Positions 1-7,003 of a stretch of 32,000 nucleotides of DNA are shown here, piece after piece. Below the pieces are notes generated by a model. It was not told the origin of the DNA and ran no database searches. It saw only the letters and a program-made list of their open reading frames with translations. How positions within the stretch are numbered: the stretch's first letter is position 1; each line of letters starts with the position of its first letter. Both the position numbers and the translations under genes were made by a program. The stretch is taken from assembly GCA_030614005.1 (NCBI GenBank), contig JAUWKS010000004.1:83438-115437 (forward strand). Reading direction: 5' to 3'. Source of the DNA: Candidatus Heimdallarchaeota archaeon (GTDB taxonomy: Archaea > Asgardarchaeota > Heimdallarchaeia > JABLTI01).

Positions 1-193
1 CACCACATATCCTACTCACGATTCGGGGCATTTCTTCTGCGGGTCTTCCTTCACAGAACTTTTCAAATCCCCTCAATTCTTGAACTTGGAAATATGCATC
101 TACAGCATTTCCTTTGTCATCAAGAAATATTGATATTTTTGCTTCTCCTTCTAATCGAGAGACGGGATTAATATAAATTGTCTTTTTTGTCAT
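1..193 (-). CDS. mvhA: [NiFe]-hydrogenase large subunit, Mvh/group 3c-like (5' part only, runs off the window edge)
   Basis: Not in ORF track; hand translation from ATG at 193: [64 protein letters not shown]. It contains the RLEG, RGFEKF and RICG (start of L1 Ni-binding motif) signatures and lies 15 nt after mvhG. Confidence 0.93.
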
Positions 194-208
194 GATAGTT
201 CCCTCTAT

Positions 209-1231
209 TTACTTTTTAGAGCTCTCCTCTTCAGCAACTTTCTTTTTCGTTTTTATTATGTACTCAGGTGTGAAAAACCGATAAAATGTACCAAATGGAT
301 CAGGAATTGTTTCCATCAATTTCTTCAAACCTTCAGGACCTAGTTCCGCTTCGATTTTTGCTCCACCTATTGAAGCAATTGCAGAAAGCATTTTTAATCC
401 TGGATCTTTCACACCTGGAGCGGGACCAAAGCATCCTCTGCATGGCATATTTGCTCCTAAAGTACATTGTCCACCACAGCCTGCACGCGTGGCAGGGCCC
501 ATACAAATAATCCCTTGAGAAAGCAAACATTTTTCTGGATCTGGATCAATCTCAAATGGTCGTCTAAATCTGTTTATGACGATTTCTTCAGGTTTTTCGC
601 GACCACATTCTTCGCAAAGGGCAGTTTCACCAGCAACTACTGTTCCTTTTGGTGGTAATTCTCCCTTCTTGATGAAATTGGTAATAATATCAACAAGCAT
701 TTCCCATTGTGTTGGAACAGGAGGACAACCAGGAACAAAATAATTTACATCTACTTCAGATGTAAGTGGCAAACAAGAGTCTAATAATTTTGGTAAAGTC
801 ATTGCCCGTCCTTTTTTATATTCAGATTTAGGTCGCATATAATTTTGATTTGGACCAGATTCATCAATGTTGTAGCCATTGGTATATACTGAATCTAAAA
901 TAGTTTGTGCATCATATGGATTTGCTAGTTGTGGTATTCCACCAAAACAAGAACAAGACCCATAAGCTATCATTACTTTACTCTTTTTTCTGAACAAATG
1001 AGCAATTTCAGCATGCTCTGAGGTTCGGATAGGTCCATGATATAAGCAAATGTCAATTTCTTTATCTTGGAGAGCCTCTACATCTTCGAATTTGAAATCA
1101 GCAGCAACTTGCCAAAATACAAGTTCAATGACTTCTTCGATTGGAATTAGCATCTCATTAAGATTAATGATAGACATATCACAACCGCCACAAAATGAAC
1201 CGGCTGCAACAGCTAATTTTATCTTCTTCAT
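209..1231 (-). CDS. mvhG: [NiFe]-hydrogenase small subunit (methyl-viologen-reducing hydrogenase gamma subunit)
   Basis: CGGC, GSCSCFGGI and PGCPP proximal-cluster motifs; C-terminal CEEC...CLL...CMGPATRAGC...CRGC; lies between mvhD and mvhA; GGAGG SD upstream. Confidence 0.93.
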   Translation of the reverse strand: MKKIKLAVAAGSFCGGCDMSIINLNEMLIPIEEVIELVFWQVAADFKFEDVEALQDKEIDICLYHGPIRTSEHAEIAHLFRKKSKVMIAYGSCSCFGGIPQLANPYDAQTILDSVYTNGYNIDESGPNQNYMRPKSEYKKGRAMTLPKLLDSCLPLTSEVDVNYFVPGCPPVPTQWEMLVDIITNFIKKGELPPKGTVVAGETALCEECGREKPEEIVINRFRRPFEIDPDPEKCLLSQGIICMGPATRAGCGGQCTLGANMPCRGCFGPAPGVKDPGLKMLSAIASIGGAKIEAELGPEGLKKLMETIPDPFGTFYRFFTPEYIIKTKKKVAEEESSKK

Positions 1232-1232
1232 T

Positions 1233-1688
1233 TTAATGTTTGGCCTCCAGAGCTACCCTATTATTTCTTAAGGGATTTGGGGGGAGATGTTTGAGTTTTT
1301 CAATAAACTCAGTCATTGTCTTTACGAACTTCTTAGCTTCCGAAGAAGAAATCCACTCGAGATGTATTCGCTCATCTTCTATGCCCATTTGAGCAGCTAG
1401 TTCTTTGACCAAAACCATTCTCTTTAACGTTTTGTAGTTTCCAGTGACGTAATGGCATTCGCCTGGATGGCAACCTGCAACAATTACACCATCAGCTCCA
1501 CCTGCTAAAGCATCAAAGATATAGGTAGGGTCAACTCGTCCTGAACAAGGGGTTACAATAGTGATGACATTTGCGGGGTATTTCATTCGAGAAACACCAG
1601 CTAGATCTGCTGCATTACTACTACACCATTTGCAGAGAAATGCAATTACTTTGGGTTCGGGGTTTAACAATTCAGACATTGTACTCAC
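1233..1688 (-). CDS. mvhD: Hydrogenase iron-sulfur subunit delta, [2Fe-2S] (MvhD/FlpD)
   Basis: FLCKWC...ADLAG, PCSGRVD and GCHPGECHY motifs; directly after hdrA. Confidence 0.95.
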   Translation of the reverse strand: MSTMSELLNPEPKVIAFLCKWCSSNAADLAGVSRMKYPANVITIVTPCSGRVDPTYIFDALAGGADGVIVAGCHPGECHYVTGNYKTLKRMVLVKELAAQMGIEDERIHLEWISSSEAKKFVKTMTEFIEKLKHLPPNPLRNNRVALEAKH

Positions 1689-1699
1689 GCACCTATTTC

Positions 1700-3694
1700 T
1701 TATTTAGCCTCCGTTTTTAAGGCAATTCGAATCATATTCTCGATTTGCTTATCAGTTTGATTCTTCAAAGTCAATGCTAAACTTGGGCATGCGCTTGCAC
1801 ACGTGCCACAACCTTGGCAAAGAATTTCTTTCACAACTGAAATGTTCTTTACAGAGTCAAAAGATATTGCACCATAGGGACAAAGGCTTTGGCATACTTT
1901 GCAACCACTACATGCTTTTTCGTTTACAATAGCCACTATGGGGTCATGATAAAGTTGGGGTTTTGATAATAGAGCCATTGCTTTTGAAGCAGCAGCGCTA
2001 CCTTGAGCAACACATTCAGGAATATCCTTTGGTGAGAGTGCAGTACCGGCAACAAATAATCCTTGAACTAAACTTTCGACTGGTTTCAATTTTACATGTG
2101 CTTCCTTGAAAAATCCATATTCATCAAGGTTACACTTTGTTACTCCTGAAAGTATTTTAGTGTCAAATGAAGGAATCATAGCAGGAGCTAAAACAACTAA
2201 ATCAGCTTCTACTTCTAATCTTTCGCCTGTAAGTGTATTAGCAGCCCAAATTATCGTTTTATCTCCTTCTCTGAAGATTTTTGATGGTTTTCCTCTAATG
2301 TAAATTACACCCATTTCTTGTGCTCTATCGATGAATTCTTCGTATCCTCGACCAGCTGCTCGAATATCGATATAAAAGACATACACTTCTGTTTCTGGCT
2401 CTTGATCTTTTAAGAGTAAAGCGTGTTTACCAGTATATGTACAACAGATTTTACTACAATAAGCCATATGATGTTCTGGGTCTCTACTACCTACGCATTG
2501 AACAAAAACAACAGTTTCTGGTTTCTTATGGTCAGATGGTCTTAAAACAGCACCACCAGTTGGTCCTGCACTATTTAACAAACGTTCGAATTGCAAACCA
2601 TCTATGACATCAACTTCTGGACCAAAATCATATTCTGAAATCTTTGATATATCGTAGAGATCATATCCTGTTGCAATTACTATTGCACCAACATTCAATT
2701 CTACGATTTCTTCTTTCATATCATAATTGATTGCTTTTTGTTCGCAAGCATCCCGACACTTTGAACATACTAAGGGGTGAATACCCAAACAATTCTCAAT
2801 ATCAAGTATATAAGCACTTGGAACTGCTTGTGGAAAAGGTAAGTAGATTGCTTTTCTTGGACCAAGTCCACCTTCAAATTCATTTGGAACTATTACTGGG
2901 CAGACTTCGACACAATCATCACACAAGTTGCAAAGCTCTTCAATAACAAATTTCGGTTTCTTAGTTATTTGAGCTTTAAAGTTCCCTACGAAACCCGTAA
3001 CACTAGTTAGTTTAGCGTTTGTTATTAGCTCAACATTATCATGATGAGCTATTTCAGACATTTTAGGTGATAGGATACATTGAGAACAATCTAGTGTTGG
3101 GAATGTTGAAGTTAATTGAGCCATGTGTCCACCAATTGTTGGTGATTGCTCAACTAAATACACATGATAACCTGAGTTTGCTAAATCTAGAGCAGCTTGA
3201 ATTCCAGTTATTCCTGCACCAACCACCATTGCATTACGATTTACGTCCACAGAAATTGGTGTCAGTGCTTCATTCAACAAAGCTTTTTCAACTTTAGTTT
3301 CAATGATTTTCATTGCTTTTACAGTTGCTTTTTCTTTATCTGAATGAACCCAGCTGCACTTTTCTCGAATGTTAGCTATTTCAACTTCATATTTATTGAT
3401 ACCAACATCTGCGGCAGCTTTTCTGAAAGTTTCTTCATGCAACGTTGGTGAGCAACATGCACAAATTATTCCATCTAATCGATGATACTTAATATCATCT
3501 TGAAGTGCTTTTTGACCTGGTTCCGAGCACAAATAATGGCTTTCAGCCGCATGAACTACTCCATGAAGATTAGTGGCTTCTTTAGCAATGTTTTCAACGT
3601 CTACTGTAGCAGCTATATTCTTACCACAATGACACACGAAAACACCTAAACGTTTTGCTTCTTCTGGTTCTCTAGTTTTCTTTTTCTGAGACAA
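1700..3694 (-). CDS. hdrA: Heterodisulfide reductase subunit A-like flavoprotein (FAD, multiple 4Fe-4S)
   Basis: GVFVCHCG N-terminus, GAGITG FAD motif, FPTLDCSQCI, CNLCDDCVEVCP, CVGSRD...CSKICC, and two C-terminal CxxCxxCxxxCP motifs; TTG start preceded by GGAGG. Confidence 0.95.
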   Translation of the reverse strand: MSQKKKTREPEEAKRLGVFVCHCGKNIAATVDVENIAKEATNLHGVVHAAESHYLCSEPGQKALQDDIKYHRLDGIICACCSPTLHEETFRKAAADVGINKYEVEIANIREKCSWVHSDKEKATVKAMKIIETKVEKALLNEALTPISVDVNRNAMVVGAGITGIQAALDLANSGYHVYLVEQSPTIGGHMAQLTSTFPTLDCSQCILSPKMSEIAHHDNVELITNAKLTSVTGFVGNFKAQITKKPKFVIEELCNLCDDCVEVCPVIVPNEFEGGLGPRKAIYLPFPQAVPSAYILDIENCLGIHPLVCSKCRDACEQKAINYDMKEEIVELNVGAIVIATGYDLYDISKISEYDFGPEVDVIDGLQFERLLNSAGPTGGAVLRPSDHKKPETVVFVQCVGSRDPEHHMAYCSKICCTYTGKHALLLKDQEPETEVYVFYIDIRAAGRGYEEFIDRAQEMGVIYIRGKPSKIFREGDKTIIWAANTLTGERLEVEADLVVLAPAMIPSFDTKILSGVTKCNLDEYGFFKEAHVKLKPVESLVQGLFVAGTALSPKDIPECVAQGSAAASKAMALLSKPQLYHDPIVAIVNEKACSGCKVCQSLCPYGAISFDSVKNISVVKEILCQGCGTCASACPSLALTLKNQTDKQIENMIRIALKTEAK

Positions 3695-3695
3695 G

Positions 3696-4262
3696 TTATT
3701 TCTTAGCCTCCTGCTTTTTCACCTTTTTTGCATAGTTCTTCCCAGTTTTGAACGCTTTTTCGTTCAATTCCCTGAATCGAGCTGGTACGAATTCAATTAC
3801 AGATTTTAAAATCGCTTTTTGATCTATATAGTCATTGAGTTCTGCAAAGAACCCTAGCATAACAATATTCGCAACTATCTTTTTGCCAAGTTCTTTTTCA
3901 GCTATTGCTGTTGCAGGAATACTATAAATATGTCCAGCTTTCTTCATCCTATCATCGACGGGTACGAGATTTTCTTCATAGAAAAACCATCCACCCTCTT
4001 TGAGAGAATCAATATGTGTAGTATACGCTTCCTTACTCATACAAATGAAAGCATCTGGTGCTAATACGTAAGGAAAGTCTACTTCTTCTTCAGATATAAC
4101 AAGATTACAAGCACTGGCACCCCCTCTGCTTTCGGGGCCATATGACTGAGTTGTTACAGATTTTCTCTTTTCAAAGATAGATACAGCAGCTCCAAGTATT
4201 TTACCCATAAGTGCTATACCTTGACCGCCAAATCCACACAAACGAATTTCAGTTCTAGTCAT
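3696..4262 (-). CDS. korC: 2-oxoacid:ferredoxin oxidoreductase gamma subunit
   Basis: IRLCGFGGQG and QSYGPESRGG motifs, NIVMLG; adjacent to alpha/beta subunits. Substrate specificity cannot be assigned from the sequence. Confidence 0.9.
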   Translation of the reverse strand: MTRTEIRLCGFGGQGIALMGKILGAAVSIFEKRKSVTTQSYGPESRGGASACNLVISEEEVDFPYVLAPDAFICMSKEAYTTHIDSLKEGGWFFYEENLVPVDDRMKKAGHIYSIPATAIAEKELGKKIVANIVMLGFFAELNDYIDQKAILKSVIEFVPARFRELNEKAFKTGKNYAKKVKKQEAKK

Positions 4263-4266
4263 TATT

Positions 4267-5133
4267 TCACCTTCGTTTAGCGAATAGTTGGATTCGCGCT
4301 ATATGATCACTCAATGTTGGCTTATCTTCTTTATCGACAAATTTACCGACAACGATTTTATTACCCAAATTAAGTTCTGCGTCACCAGGGTCAATGCCAT
4401 GTCGGATAATCGTATTTTCTCTAAAGAATTCCAACATCTTAATTCCTTCCTCATAGTCATTTCTTCTACCGAAAGTAGTTGGACACGGAGGAATTACTTC
4501 AATGAACGAGAAGCCTTTCTTTTTGATTGCTTCGACCATTGAGGCTTGCAATCGTCTTGCATTTAGAGAAGTCCATCTTGCAACATAAATCGCTCCAGCA
4601 GAAGCTACCAAATGGCAGAGATTAAAGTTTGGTTCAACATTTCCATAAGGAGAAGTTGAAGTCCAAGCTCCCATTGGAGTTGTTGGTGCTAATTGACCAC
4701 CTGTCATTCCATAAATGAAATTATTTGAACAGATTACTGTAATGTCAGCATTTCTTCTTGCCGCATGGATTATATGATTTCCACCAATAGCGAATAAATC
4801 GCCATCACCTGAAAATACAATTACTTTTAGCTCAGGATTTGCTAATTTTAATCCGATAGCAAATGGTATTGCTCTACCGTGTGTTGTATGGAATACATCT
4901 AGATCTAAGTAACCAGATGCTCTTCCAGTGCATCCGATTCCAGATACAACCACAATTTTCTTTGTATCTATTCCGGATTCGGCAATTGCATGGATGAAAC
5001 ATGAAAGCACACTACCTAAACCACAACCACTACACCATACGTGTGGGAGTCGGTCCCAACGTAATAAGTAATCCATTGGATGTCTTTTTGCTTCTAGTAT
5101 AGTATCATCAACTTTTTCTTCTGAGATGGTCAT
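4267..5133 (-). CDS. korB: 2-oxoacid:ferredoxin oxidoreductase beta subunit (TPP-binding)
   Basis: WCSGCG, GIGCTG, HTTHGRA, GDGD...GGNH...NN TPP motif, YGMTGGQ. Confidence 0.93.
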   Translation of the reverse strand: MTISEEKVDDTILEAKRHPMDYLLRWDRLPHVWCSGCGLGSVLSCFIHAIAESGIDTKKIVVVSGIGCTGRASGYLDLDVFHTTHGRAIPFAIGLKLANPELKVIVFSGDGDLFAIGGNHIIHAARRNADITVICSNNFIYGMTGGQLAPTTPMGAWTSTSPYGNVEPNFNLCHLVASAGAIYVARWTSLNARRLQASMVEAIKKKGFSFIEVIPPCPTTFGRRNDYEEGIKMLEFFRENTIIRHGIDPGDAELNLGNKIVVGKFVDKEDKPTLSDHIARIQLFAKRR

Positions 5134-6296
5134 TTCTTCTTTACCTCCTCGATTTTCGCTAGTATTTCTTTTGGGGTGTGAACAGTCCCACCTAGCTTTG
5201 AGGATAGCACAACAGGAACACTCTTTCGGGTTGCTTCTCTAACCTCTTTGACTATTTGTCCATTGTTAATCTCTGCTACAACAATAGCATCAACTTTTTT
5301 CGCTAGTTCTTCAATAAGCTTCGTTGGAAAAGGCCAAATTGTAATTAAGCGAAGTAGGCCAGCTTTAATTCCTTTCTTTCGGGCAAGGTTTACTGCGCCT
5401 TTTGCAGATCTAGCAGTTATTCCATATGAGATAACAAGTACTTTTGCATCTTTTGTCATGTATTCTTCTGTTAATCGGATTTTTTCTTCATTCAGTAATA
5501 TTTTGTCACACAAACGTTTTACTAATATTTCTTGGGCTTCTGGTGTTATTACTGGATATCCTTTTGTATCGTGAGTTAATCCTGTAACAAAAACATTGTA
5601 ACCTTCTCCGGCGGCAGCCATCGGAGGAATCATATCTGCATCAGGTTTAAAAGTCAAATGATTTTTCTTTGAACCTGTTGGTTTCTTTCTGTTTTCAATT
5701 TTTATTTTGGACTTGGTGGGGATAATTAGTTTTTCAACCATATGACATATTGATTCATCAGTTAGCATAATAACTGGTGTTCTATATTTCTCTGCAAGAT
5801 TAAAGGCTTCAATCGATAAATCGAATGCTTCCTGCACAGAATTGGGTGAAAGGGCTATTAATTCATAATCGCCATGAGAGCCCCAGCGTGCTTGCATAAC
5901 ATCTCCTTGTCCTACAAGTGTTGGGAGACCTGTTGAAGGTCCTGCCCTTTGAACATTAATAATAACAAAGGGAGTTTCAGTCATGGCTCCAAGGCCTATG
6001 TTCTCCATCATTAAAGAAATACCGGGACCAGACGTTGCGGTCATGGATTTCCTGCCAGCCCAAGAAGCGCCTAAAATAGTAGCAATTGAAGCAATTTCGT
6101 CTTCCATTTGGATGAAAACTCCACCCACCTGCGGTAAACGACGAGACATTCTCTCAGCGATTTCACTCGAAGGGGTGATTGGGTATCCACCAAAAAATCT
6201 GCAACCAGCTGCTAGGCAACCTTCTGCAATAGCTTCATTACCACTTATGTAGTGCTCTCCGGTTAAGACGTCATGTATTGATGCTTTTTTACTCAT
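5130..6296 (-). CDS. korA: 2-oxoacid:ferredoxin oxidoreductase alpha subunit
   Basis: GYPITPSSEI, QMEDEIAS, ATSGPG and QRAGPSTGLPT motifs; 4-nt overlap with the beta gene. Confidence 0.93.
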   Translation of the reverse strand: MSKKASIHDVLTGEHYISGNEAIAEGCLAAGCRFFGGYPITPSSEIAERMSRRLPQVGGVFIQMEDEIASIATILGASWAGRKSMTATSGPGISLMMENIGLGAMTETPFVIINVQRAGPSTGLPTLVGQGDVMQARWGSHGDYELIALSPNSVQEAFDLSIEAFNLAEKYRTPVIMLTDESICHMVEKLIIPTKSKIKIENRKKPTGSKKNHLTFKPDADMIPPMAAAGEGYNVFVTGLTHDTKGYPVITPEAQEILVKRLCDKILLNEEKIRLTEEYMTKDAKVLVISYGITARSAKGAVNLARKKGIKAGLLRLITIWPFPTKLIEELAKKVDAIVVAEINNGQIVKEVREATRKSVPVVLSSKLGGTVHTPKEILAKIEEVKKK

Positions 6297-6342
6297 TCAA
6301 ATTCGCCTTGTTCATTTTATTCAATTGATTCCGAATTTTAGA

Positions 6343-6651
6343 TTATTTTTTTGCACCTGTTGTATCTTCTTCTTTCTCAAGGAATATTGAGAATTCGGGG
6401 CAAATCAATTCACAGAAACCACATTTTGCGCAATCGTCCATATCCATATCATCCTTGATTTTTGGAGGATGATACCCTTTAGAATTAATTTCCGGAGAAC
6501 TTTCTAGTAACTCCGTTGGACAAAAGTTTATACAAAATAAGCATCCTTTACATCGATCTGTTATGATCTTTAAGTGCCATTTCTCCTGCTCTTTATATTC
6601 GGGAGGTATAAATGATATTATTTTTCTAAGTGTCATGTGCAAACGCAACAT
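6343..6651 (-). CDS. korD: 2-oxoacid:ferredoxin oxidoreductase delta subunit (2x[4Fe-4S] ferredoxin-like)
   Basis: CKGCLFCINFCP and CAKCGFCELICP; first gene of the kor cluster. The true start may be the second Met at 6636. Confidence 0.88.
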   Translation of the reverse strand: MLRLHMTLRKIISFIPPEYKEQEKWHLKIITDRCKGCLFCINFCPTELLESSPEINSKGYHPPKIKDDMDMDDCAKCGFCELICPEFSIFLEKEEDTTGAKK

Positions 6652-6840: not shown

Positions 6841-6950
6841 ATAGAATGTAATCTATGTCAAGAATGTAATGAATGTAACTTATGTTATGAATGTAATCTA
6901 TGGAAATATGTTATCTATGTAATGTATGTAAAGAATGTAATCGATGTAAG
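6841..6950. repeat. Degenerate 9-bp-period tandem array (about 12 units, NAWNWATGT)
   Basis: TGT at 6847, 6856, 6865, 6874, 6883, 6892, (TGG at 6901), then 6909, 6918, 6927, 6936, 6945: 9-nt spacing with one 8-nt unit. Confidence 0.85.
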
Positions 6951-7003
6951 TAAATTATATATCAAAAAACAAGAAAAAAATGAGAAATCAAAAAGAATAC
7001 AAA

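Follow-up and report, generated by a model that had tools for sequence, protein, structure and literature searches.

The window analysed here is a 32,000-nucleotide stretch of a Heimdallarchaeota metagenome-assembled genome (MAG; GCA_030614005.1, contig JAUWKS010000004.1, here C4:83438-115437), and its left edge holds the first part of a minus-strand operon in which the four subunit genes of a 2-oxoacid:ferredoxin oxidoreductase (Kor) are joined to Hdr and Mvh [NiFe]-hydrogenase genes. When followed leftwards by reading 15 kb beyond the window (stretch L002), this operon comprises 13 genes and ends in a pair encoding subunits that resemble fumarate reductase (Frd). On balance, and with slightly more belief than doubt, we read it as encoding a soluble, H2-driven, electron-bifurcating fumarate reductase that would supply reduced ferredoxin to a 2-oxoglutarate synthase within a reductive branch of the tricarboxylic acid (TCA) cycle. 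The host assembly measures 3.6 Mb and is estimated to be 90% complete with 3.4% contamination, and the gene identities given below were taken from matches to Pfam and NCBIfam profiles.

Within the window, a six-frame list of open reading frames (ORFs) gives eight minus-strand genes, korD-A-B-C-hdrA-mvhD-mvhG-mvhA, running from position 6651 down to position 1, with intergenic distances from korD to mvhA of 46, -4, 4, 1, 11, 1 and 15 nt. The operon's first gene, korD (6343..6651), encodes a 102-aa delta subunit resembling a 2x[4Fe-4S] ferredoxin and is followed by korA (5130..6296; alpha subunit of the 2-oxoacid:ferredoxin oxidoreductase, 388 aa), korB (4267..5133; beta subunit, thiamine pyrophosphate (TPP)-binding, 288 aa) and korC (3696..4262; gamma subunit, 188 aa). 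The hydrogenase and Hdr part begins with hdrA (1700..3694), for a 664-aa bifurcating-type flavoprotein with Fe-S clusters, and continues with mvhD, also called FlpD (1233..1688; a 151-aa [2Fe-2S] adaptor linking the electron-donor module to HdrA), and mvhG (209..1231; [NiFe]-hydrogenase small subunit, 340 aa). Only residues 1-64 of MvhA fall inside the window (1..193); the whole gene, for a group 3c-like large subunit of 485 aa, occupies C4:82173-83630 (L002:13736-15193). Further left, outside the window and again on the minus strand, a maturation endopeptidase gene (C4:81661-82176) overlaps mvhA by 4 nt and is followed after a 47-nt gap by an hdrC-like gene (C4:81206-81613), after 17 nt by an hdrB-like gene with two CCG domains (C4:80268-81188), after 1 nt by the gene of an FrdB/TfrB-like Fe-S subunit (C4:79565-80266) and after 22 nt by the last gene of the operon, which encodes an FrdA/TfrA-like flavoprotein (C4:77890-79542). 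The full order on this one strand and contig is korDABC-hdrA-mvhD-mvhG-mvhA-protease-hdrC-hdrB-frdB-frdA.

A preliminary description, made from the window, had reported eight co-oriented genes with these gaps and Shine-Dalgarno (SD) motifs. The ORF list and the profiles confirm that these genes are real, and SD-like motifs stand before most of the internal genes, but the eight are only the first part of the 13-gene operon. The accompanying suggestion that HdrBC might be missing does not survive the leftward extension of the contig, in which hdrC and hdrB are found just downstream of mvhA, after the protease gene; the FrdB/FrdA-like fumarate reductase directly after hdrB had also been missed from the set of partners.

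GGAGG- or AGGTG-like motifs precede korB, korC, hdrA, mvhD, mvhG, mvhA, hdrC and the flavoprotein gene. Some genes of the operon start with TTG or GTG, and mvhD could start 9 nt later; for hdrA, no alternative start was found ahead of the conserved N-terminus. Promoters and terminators were sought by reading the intergenic sequence directly, a sigma-70 promoter scan being left unused because the host is an archaeon. An AT-rich, TATA-like box lies ~40 nt ahead of the korD ATG, and oligo-T runs at 6980 and 6969 end the upstream Arf-like gene. At the opposite end, the stop codon of the flavoprotein gene is followed by a T-rich stretch and then by a fresh TATA-like box. Because these T-runs and boxes bound it at both ends, the predicted transcription unit most likely consists of the 13 genes from korD to frdA. 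The genes on either side are unrelated to the operon. Between the T-runs of the Arf-like gene and the AT-rich box of korD, about a dozen 9-bp units with TACAT (minus-strand reading) fill positions 6841-6953 of the window; they could serve the operon promoter as an array of regulator-binding sites, or be no more than a simple repeat. On the other side, 135 nt downstream of the operon and on the same strand, lies a gene for a 334-aa DAO-family FAD oxidoreductase (C4:76750-77754, L002:8313-9317), whose position is kept throughout the genus (57-84% identity) and not in other lineages.

The genes for MvhA, MvhG, MvhD, HdrA, HdrB and HdrC all lie in this single co-oriented block. HdrA is best matched in NCBIfam by HdrA2 (821 bits) and aligns over its full length to the solved bifurcating HdrA chains 8RVU, 5ODC and 7BKB (E 1e-198 to 1e-168); no second HdrA was found in the host genome, and the operon's HdrA is the sole copy there. 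MvhD matches PF02662 (E 4e-51) as well as VhuD and the C-terminal part of fused HdrA2, while MvhG matches Oxidored_q6 and the VhuG model (179 bits). In MvhA, a match to the VhuA N-terminus is accompanied by the L1 motif RICGVCPWPH and the L2 motif DPCLACSTH, the latter followed by a 26-aa C-terminal tail, and the best solved relative is the group 3c MvhA 5ODC_F (E 3e-101). The protease belongs to TIGR00072 (107 bits, cut-off 47). HdrC carries two CxxCxxCxxxC (4Fe-4S) motifs, and HdrB, which matches TIGR03288 (168 bits) and aligns to 5ODC_B, has two complete CCG motifs and 10 cysteines.

The flavoprotein encoded by the last gene aligns with E. coli FrdA, and the best fold match of its model is FrdA 1kf6_A. 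Its residues H325, T341, E342, R345, R366, H439 and R473 correspond to FrdA H232, T244, E245, R248, R287, H355 and R390 and are invariant in 51 orthologues, the equivalent of FrdA R287 being kept as an invariant R-D pair. Where E. coli FrdA has His44, the site of covalent FAD attachment, the flavoprotein has Asn134, and asparagine occupies this position in 51/51 orthologues. Loss of the covalent FAD link lowers the flavin potential by ~100 mV, retaining fumarate reduction and abolishing succinate oxidation (PMC5773532). Since the covalent-FAD histidine is replaced by asparagine, the sequence of the flavoprotein argues for fumarate reduction and against succinate oxidation. No membrane anchor subunits (SdhC/D or FrdC/D) lie in or beside the operon.

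The best NCBIfam model for the flavoprotein is TfrA, NF004900; the match scores 317 bits (cut-off 718) and covers profile positions 8-410 of 546. Residues 1-93 (C4:79264-79542, L002:10827-11105) form a confidently modelled N-terminal domain with invariant Y6, T20-R21, R24 and H45-P46-D47, for which no Pfam match was found. In a library of 1.8 billion proteins, this domain was only N-terminal in its matches (238 cluster representatives); the long matches, of 412-552 aa, have the length of the flavoprotein, most of the others are short fragments, and the search as a whole gave no functional clue. The domain may serve to dock the flavoprotein to the Hdr module.

The FrdB-like subunit, of 233 aa, combines a plant-type 2Fe-2S motif with two CxxCxxCxxxCP motifs, and its 12 cysteines are invariant in 25 orthologues. 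In an AlphaFold2 (AF2) model (pLDDT 85.7), a 2Fe-2S ferredoxin domain is joined to a helical dicluster domain like that of HdrC, the two being resolved separately by VIA-align. Foldseek returned weak full-length matches of this model to FrdB/SdhB (TM about 0.28), so the predicted fold is consistent with an FrdB-type subunit and falls short of proving membership. No CCG domain was found in the FrdB-like subunit; HdrB is the one CCG protein of the operon.

An identity of the flavoprotein as L-aspartate oxidase was considered and rejected, since a true NadB is encoded on contig C71 (698 bits, cut-off 629) and the flavoprotein has a dedicated Fe-S partner. Apart from this NadB, its sole flavoprotein paralogue, no other Sdh/Frd was found in the genome, membrane-bound forms included. 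The NadB locus (L101, C71:144000-156000) has neighbours whose best matches look bacterial (FKBP/BamJ-like, alpha/beta hydrolase and metallo-beta-lactamase fold), and the region may belong to a contaminant contig or have been transferred.

All four Kor subunits are present with the domains POR_N/PFOR_II, TPP_enzyme_C, POR and 2x[4Fe-4S]. KorA, with POR_N and PFOR_II, matches PRK08659/NF006412, an alpha-subunit model of 2-oxoacid:acceptor oxidoreductase, with 571 bits (cut-off 411), and KorC, of the POR gamma family, matches PRK08537 with 202 bits. The best match of KorB (TPP_enzyme_C) is PRK09628, the beta subunit of 2-oxoglutarate ferredoxin oxidoreductase (OGOR), at 275 bits (below the cut-off of 364), and that of KorD, a Fer4 dicluster protein with two CxxCxxCxxxC motifs, is the NCBIfam model OGOR_delta at 51 bits (also below cut-off).

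Gene content, motifs, conservation and co-location can be read directly; around them we infer complex formation, an electron wire from HdrB to the FrdB-like subunit, bifurcation and the direction of Kor. In the mechanism that we propose, MvhAG would oxidise H2 and pass the electrons through MvhD to the flavin of HdrA. One electron of each pair would take the downhill route, passing HdrC, HdrB and the clusters of the FrdB-like subunit in turn before reaching the FrdA-like subunit, whose non-covalent FAD would reduce fumarate to succinate. The other would be driven uphill through the ferredoxin domains of HdrA to ferredoxin, or straight to KorD, and these low-potential electrons would drive Kor in the reductive carboxylation of succinyl-CoA to 2-oxoglutarate. 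Fumarate would in this way stand in for the heterodisulfide of coenzyme M (CoM) and coenzyme B (CoB), CoM-S-S-CoB, as the high-potential acceptor used in methanogens.

The potentials of the couples concerned are -414 mV for H2, +33 mV for fumarate/succinate, about -500 mV for ferredoxin and -320 mV for NADH. On these values, the joint reduction of fumarate and ferredoxin by H2 should be favourable by a wide margin, even when H2 is low, and the reverse, the formation of H2 from reduced ferredoxin and succinate, is not favourable. All characterised group 3c hydrogenases oxidise H2 (PMC11216029). We favour the forward, H2-consuming direction because 3c enzymes oxidise H2, the flavin is predicted to be non-covalent and the thermodynamics of the reverse are poor.

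A class I fumarase and a succinyl-CoA synthetase (SCS) are encoded elsewhere in the genome, and together with them the operon would make up a reductive branch leading from fumarate to 2-oxoglutarate and glutamate. No citrate synthase domain (PF00285) was found in the 90%-complete host genome. The ATP-citrate lyase (ACL) domain (PF16114) was not found there either, but its control matched in no control genome, and the absence rests mainly on PF00285. A complete reductive TCA (rTCA) cycle in the host was considered and is unsupported, neither domain having been found. ComA (PF02679) also had no match in the 90%-complete genome, in a search aimed at this one protein. The genome has four further [NiFe]-hydrogenase large-subunit genes, of which contig C27 carries two and C5 and C34 one apiece; large subunits of the Complex1_49kDa type (group-4-like) are encoded on C34 and C29. 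It is possible that these other hydrogenases are ferredoxin-dependent partners of the operon's H2-oxidising enzyme.

Conservation of the operon was mapped by tblastn in 80 loci retrieved with HdrA and in another 18 from Asgard archaea. The identical 13-gene order was found in the genus of the window, in a sister family within the class (two closed genomes) and in a family that does not belong to it. Bipolaricaulota (with MAGs labelled Thermotogaceae) and Cloacimonadota have the gene set in other arrangements, and tubeworm endosymbionts, Chromatiales and Rhodospirillales have it without mvhGA; it has been kept through several rearrangements in at least five phyla. Nearly all loci that carry hdrC, hdrB, frdB and frdA have the four adjacent, apart from a small number of bacterial loci with a rearranged order. 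Three FlxABC-like genes lie between mvhD and hdrA instead of mvhGA in a different genus of the sister family (loci L090, L091 and L097); those at L091:5011-7894 encode an Fe-S protein of 328 aa, a Fer4_22 protein of 341 aa and an FAD/NAD-binding protein of 288 aa. Because FlxABC-like genes replace mvhGA in an otherwise identical operon, the electron-donor module is exchangeable (NAD(P)H for H2) while Kor-HdrA-MvhD-HdrCB-FrdBA stays.

Across the phylum-wide set of 399 genomes, HdrA is present in 369 and full-length orthologues of the flavoprotein in about 65. HdrA copies at least 50% identical to that of the operon lie within 15 kb of an FrdA-like orthologue in at least 36 Asgard genomes. The functional link between Kor and HdrA-Mvh put forward in the preliminary description is supported by the tight packing and by its recurrence in many Asgard families and several bacterial phyla. 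The same synteny comparison shows the gene set to be common, and it has already been described in bacteria; like the presence of hdrBC, this is an outcome that the preliminary description had itself named as counting against its reading. Whether the Asgard cluster came from bacteria was examined with a maximum-likelihood (ML) tree of 51 FrdA-like orthologues, which does not resolve its backbone: branches there are short, with support of 80-90, Asgard clades are intermingled with bacterial ones at nodes that lack starred support, and no donor can be named. A single in-frame stop (TGA, TAG or TAA) interrupts several HdrA matches in Asgard genomes, for example G284:C7:6535-8478, G285:C34:12088-14022 and G020:C149:15237-17213, and some of these have open frames of more than 800 aa. 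Such stops could mark selenocysteine sites or fusions, or could arise where the alignment runs on into the adjacent gene.

Several points weigh against reading the operon as an H2-driven bifurcating fumarate reductase coupled to 2-oxoglutarate synthesis. Contact between HdrB and the FrdB-like subunit, like that between Kor and HdrA, is something we read from gene order alone. The best models for KorB and KorD are 2-oxoglutarate ones, yet both scores are below the cut-offs and the substrate specificity is a prediction only, to which the conserved association with fumarate reductase lends no more than indirect support. The absences of citrate synthase and ComA fall short of proof in a genome that is ~90% complete. 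If the organism ferments peptides, as it may, Kor would work in the oxidative direction. Because several Asgard lineages (L087, L088 and L094) keep Hdr-Mvh-Frd with no kor in the 20 kb examined, Kor is a frequent rather than an obligatory partner of Hdr-Mvh-Frd.

Other explanations of the same genes were weighed with these points in mind. We consider it unlikely that two enzymes communicate through a diffusible thiol, with Mvh-HdrABC reducing a heterodisulfide or a DsrC-like disulfide together with ferredoxin and a thiol:fumarate reductase re-oxidising the thiols, as in Methanothermobacter. HdrB does keep both CCG motifs that form a disulfide-reducing site, the closest characterised enzymes, Tfr and Mvh-Hdr, work in this manner according to studies cited in PMC6315080, PMC8542988 and PMC9723677, and authors on the symbiont cluster discussed below have considered a DsrC-like carrier (PMC11636981). 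The FrdB-like subunit, however, is without the CCG domain that is the thiol-oxidising site of TfrB, which leaves one CCG protein in the operon, no ComA was found by the search described above, and the 1-nt spacing of hdrB and frdB, with their adjacency in nearly all lineages examined, fits one complex better. Somewhat less likely still is an H2-evolving sink in which ferredoxin from oxidative 2-oxoacid decarboxylation and a weaker reductant (succinate or a thiol) would be combined, or confurcated, at HdrA and H2 released at MvhAG. In its favour, Kor is reversible, Asgard archaea are widely modelled as amino-acid fermenters, work cited in PMC9723677 proposes a confurcating MvhADG-HdrABC for MK-D1 and further Asgard lineages, and the 1-nt kor-hdrA junction fits delivery of ferredoxin from Kor to HdrA. 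Against it, the covalent-FAD histidine is absent in all 51 orthologues and such enzymes cannot oxidise succinate; the mean of ferredoxin (about -500 mV) and succinate (+33 mV), about -235 mV, lies far above H+/H2 except at extremely low H2; and for the FlxABC versions of sister lineages the reverse reaction to NADH (-320 mV) would be equally unfavourable. In addition, succinate is produced by a cultured bacterium that carries the Flx version (PMC7282089), and the characterised 3c hydrogenases oxidise H2. Confurcating H2 production, as the preliminary description had it, is for these reasons of residue, thermodynamics and hydrogenase class the less likely direction.

We give least credence to the possibility that the genes encode separate enzymes that are merely co-located, Kor serving amino-acid catabolism, Mvh-Hdr working with another acceptor and the flavoenzyme acting on another substrate in the manner of an aspartate oxidase or enoate reductase. 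It would account for the lineages without kor near the cluster and for the scores of the Frd-like and Kor subunits, none of which except KorA reaches its curated NCBIfam cut-off. It is harder to reconcile with a gene set kept through rearrangements in at least five phyla, with a true NadB elsewhere in the genome, with fumarate-binding and catalytic residues that are all invariant and with co-expression of the symbiont homologue (PMC11636981). An elaboration of the bifurcating fumarate reductase, which we regard as rather improbable and raise tentatively by analogy, is that the 12 structural proteins form one soluble supercomplex, in which HdrA would pass electrons to KorD/Kor without free ferredoxin and HdrB would be wired into the fumarate reductase. 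It can be likened to the Methanospirillum Fdh-Hdr-Fmd complex (7BKB), where direct electron hand-over serves CO2 reduction.

Among the closest known systems is the MvhAGD-HdrABC complex of hydrogenotrophic methanogens, an H2:CoM-S-S-CoB, ferredoxin oxidoreductase (5ODC, 8RVU), with which the operon shares all six subunit types, a full-length HdrA at roughly 50% identity and a protease gene alongside. In contrast to that system, the host is not a methanogen, no ComA was found in it, hdrCB is joined in order to an FrdBA-like pair and kor lies upstream; the likely acceptor here is fumarate, there heterodisulfide. Methanothermobacter TfrAB is described, in PMC6315080 and PMC8542988 citing Heim 1998, as soluble and part of a reductive TCA branch to 2-oxoglutarate. 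Its TfrA is the best NCBIfam model of the flavoprotein, and the operon would serve the same reductive branch. TfrB, however, fuses Fe-S and CCG domains that are encoded here by separate genes (frdB-like and hdrB) alongside HdrC, and compared with TfrA the operon's flavoprotein has the extra 93-aa N-terminal domain and is without the C-terminal part. Methanogens build the same branch from Tfr, Mvh-Hdr and Kor as separate units. Compared with complex II, the catalytic residues are shared, whereas the covalent-FAD histidine and the membrane anchors are absent from the operon.

Bacterial counterparts have been described three times. In tubeworm symbionts and Thioflavicoccus mobilis, korABCD and tfrAB are interspersed with flxABCD-hdrABC, and a complex feeding OGOR and fumarate reductase was proposed (Rubin-Blum 2019, PMC6315080); the Riftia symbiont cluster is co-expressed (Mitchell 2024, PMC11636981), and a 2026 survey restates the bifurcation idea (PMC13147460). 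Kor, HdrA, MvhD/FlxD, HdrCB and the FrdBA-like pair of the symbiont cluster are orthologous to those of the operon at 45-57% identity (loci L031-L038 and L045), and the proposed logic is the same. The symbiont cluster differs in taking NADH as donor via FlxABC, with mvhGA absent, whereas the Heimdall operon is archaeal, would take H2 via MvhAG and has no FlxABC; the symbionts also run a full rTCA cycle with ACL, for which neither ACL nor citrate synthase was found in the Heimdall genome. The Ca. Celaenobacter cluster (Cloacimonadota; mapped here as locus L022) brings together Tfr (TFR), OGOR, group 3c Mvh and Hdr genes and was read as H2-driven (Williams 2021, PMC8542988). It shares the group 3c hydrogenase, Hdr, Tfr-like and OGOR genes with the operon but has a different order, a second HdrA, and fumarase and SCS inside, and it was interpreted through CoM/CoB heterodisulfide and a full rTCA cycle. 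The "succinate operon" of Pseudoclostridium thermosuccinogenes, a cultured succinate producer, contains fumarase, Flx-Hdr and a novel fumarate reductase (Koendjbiharie 2020, PMC7282089). There too an Hdr-linked, membrane-free fumarate reductase was proposed, one that would couple the making of succinate with the reduction of ferredoxin; the host is a bacterial fermenter, NADH is the donor and kor is missing. The Asgard papers searched, PMC9723677 among them, mention Hdr-Mvh and Tfr only separately and mostly assume CoM/CoB or confurcation. No Asgard description of the operon was found in the literature searched, whose coverage is incomplete, and an earlier description is possible.

The idea of an electron-bifurcating fumarate reductase is already published for bacteria, and the archaeal, H2-fed version described here adds little that is conceptually new. 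Having been proposed three times for bacteria, that idea is still a proposal, and the compact 13-gene archaeal hydrogenase version makes a good candidate for reconstitution. The operon bears on the old question of what Hdr reduces where CoM-S-S-CoB is not made, and for the Heimdall lineage it offers a testable answer, in which the donor would be H2, the acceptor fumarate and the ferredoxin would be spent on 2-oxoglutarate synthesis. Whether Asgard Mvh-Hdr makes or consumes H2 bears in turn on syntrophy models of eukaryote origins. If the supercomplex were real, a single machine would use H2 to turn fumarate into succinate and succinyl-CoA into 2-oxoglutarate, and, because these Heimdall genomes have no HdrA besides that of the operon, the "Mvh-Hdr" they encode would be an anabolic or respiratory device that consumes H2 and not the H2-evolving confurcating enzyme of syntrophy models.

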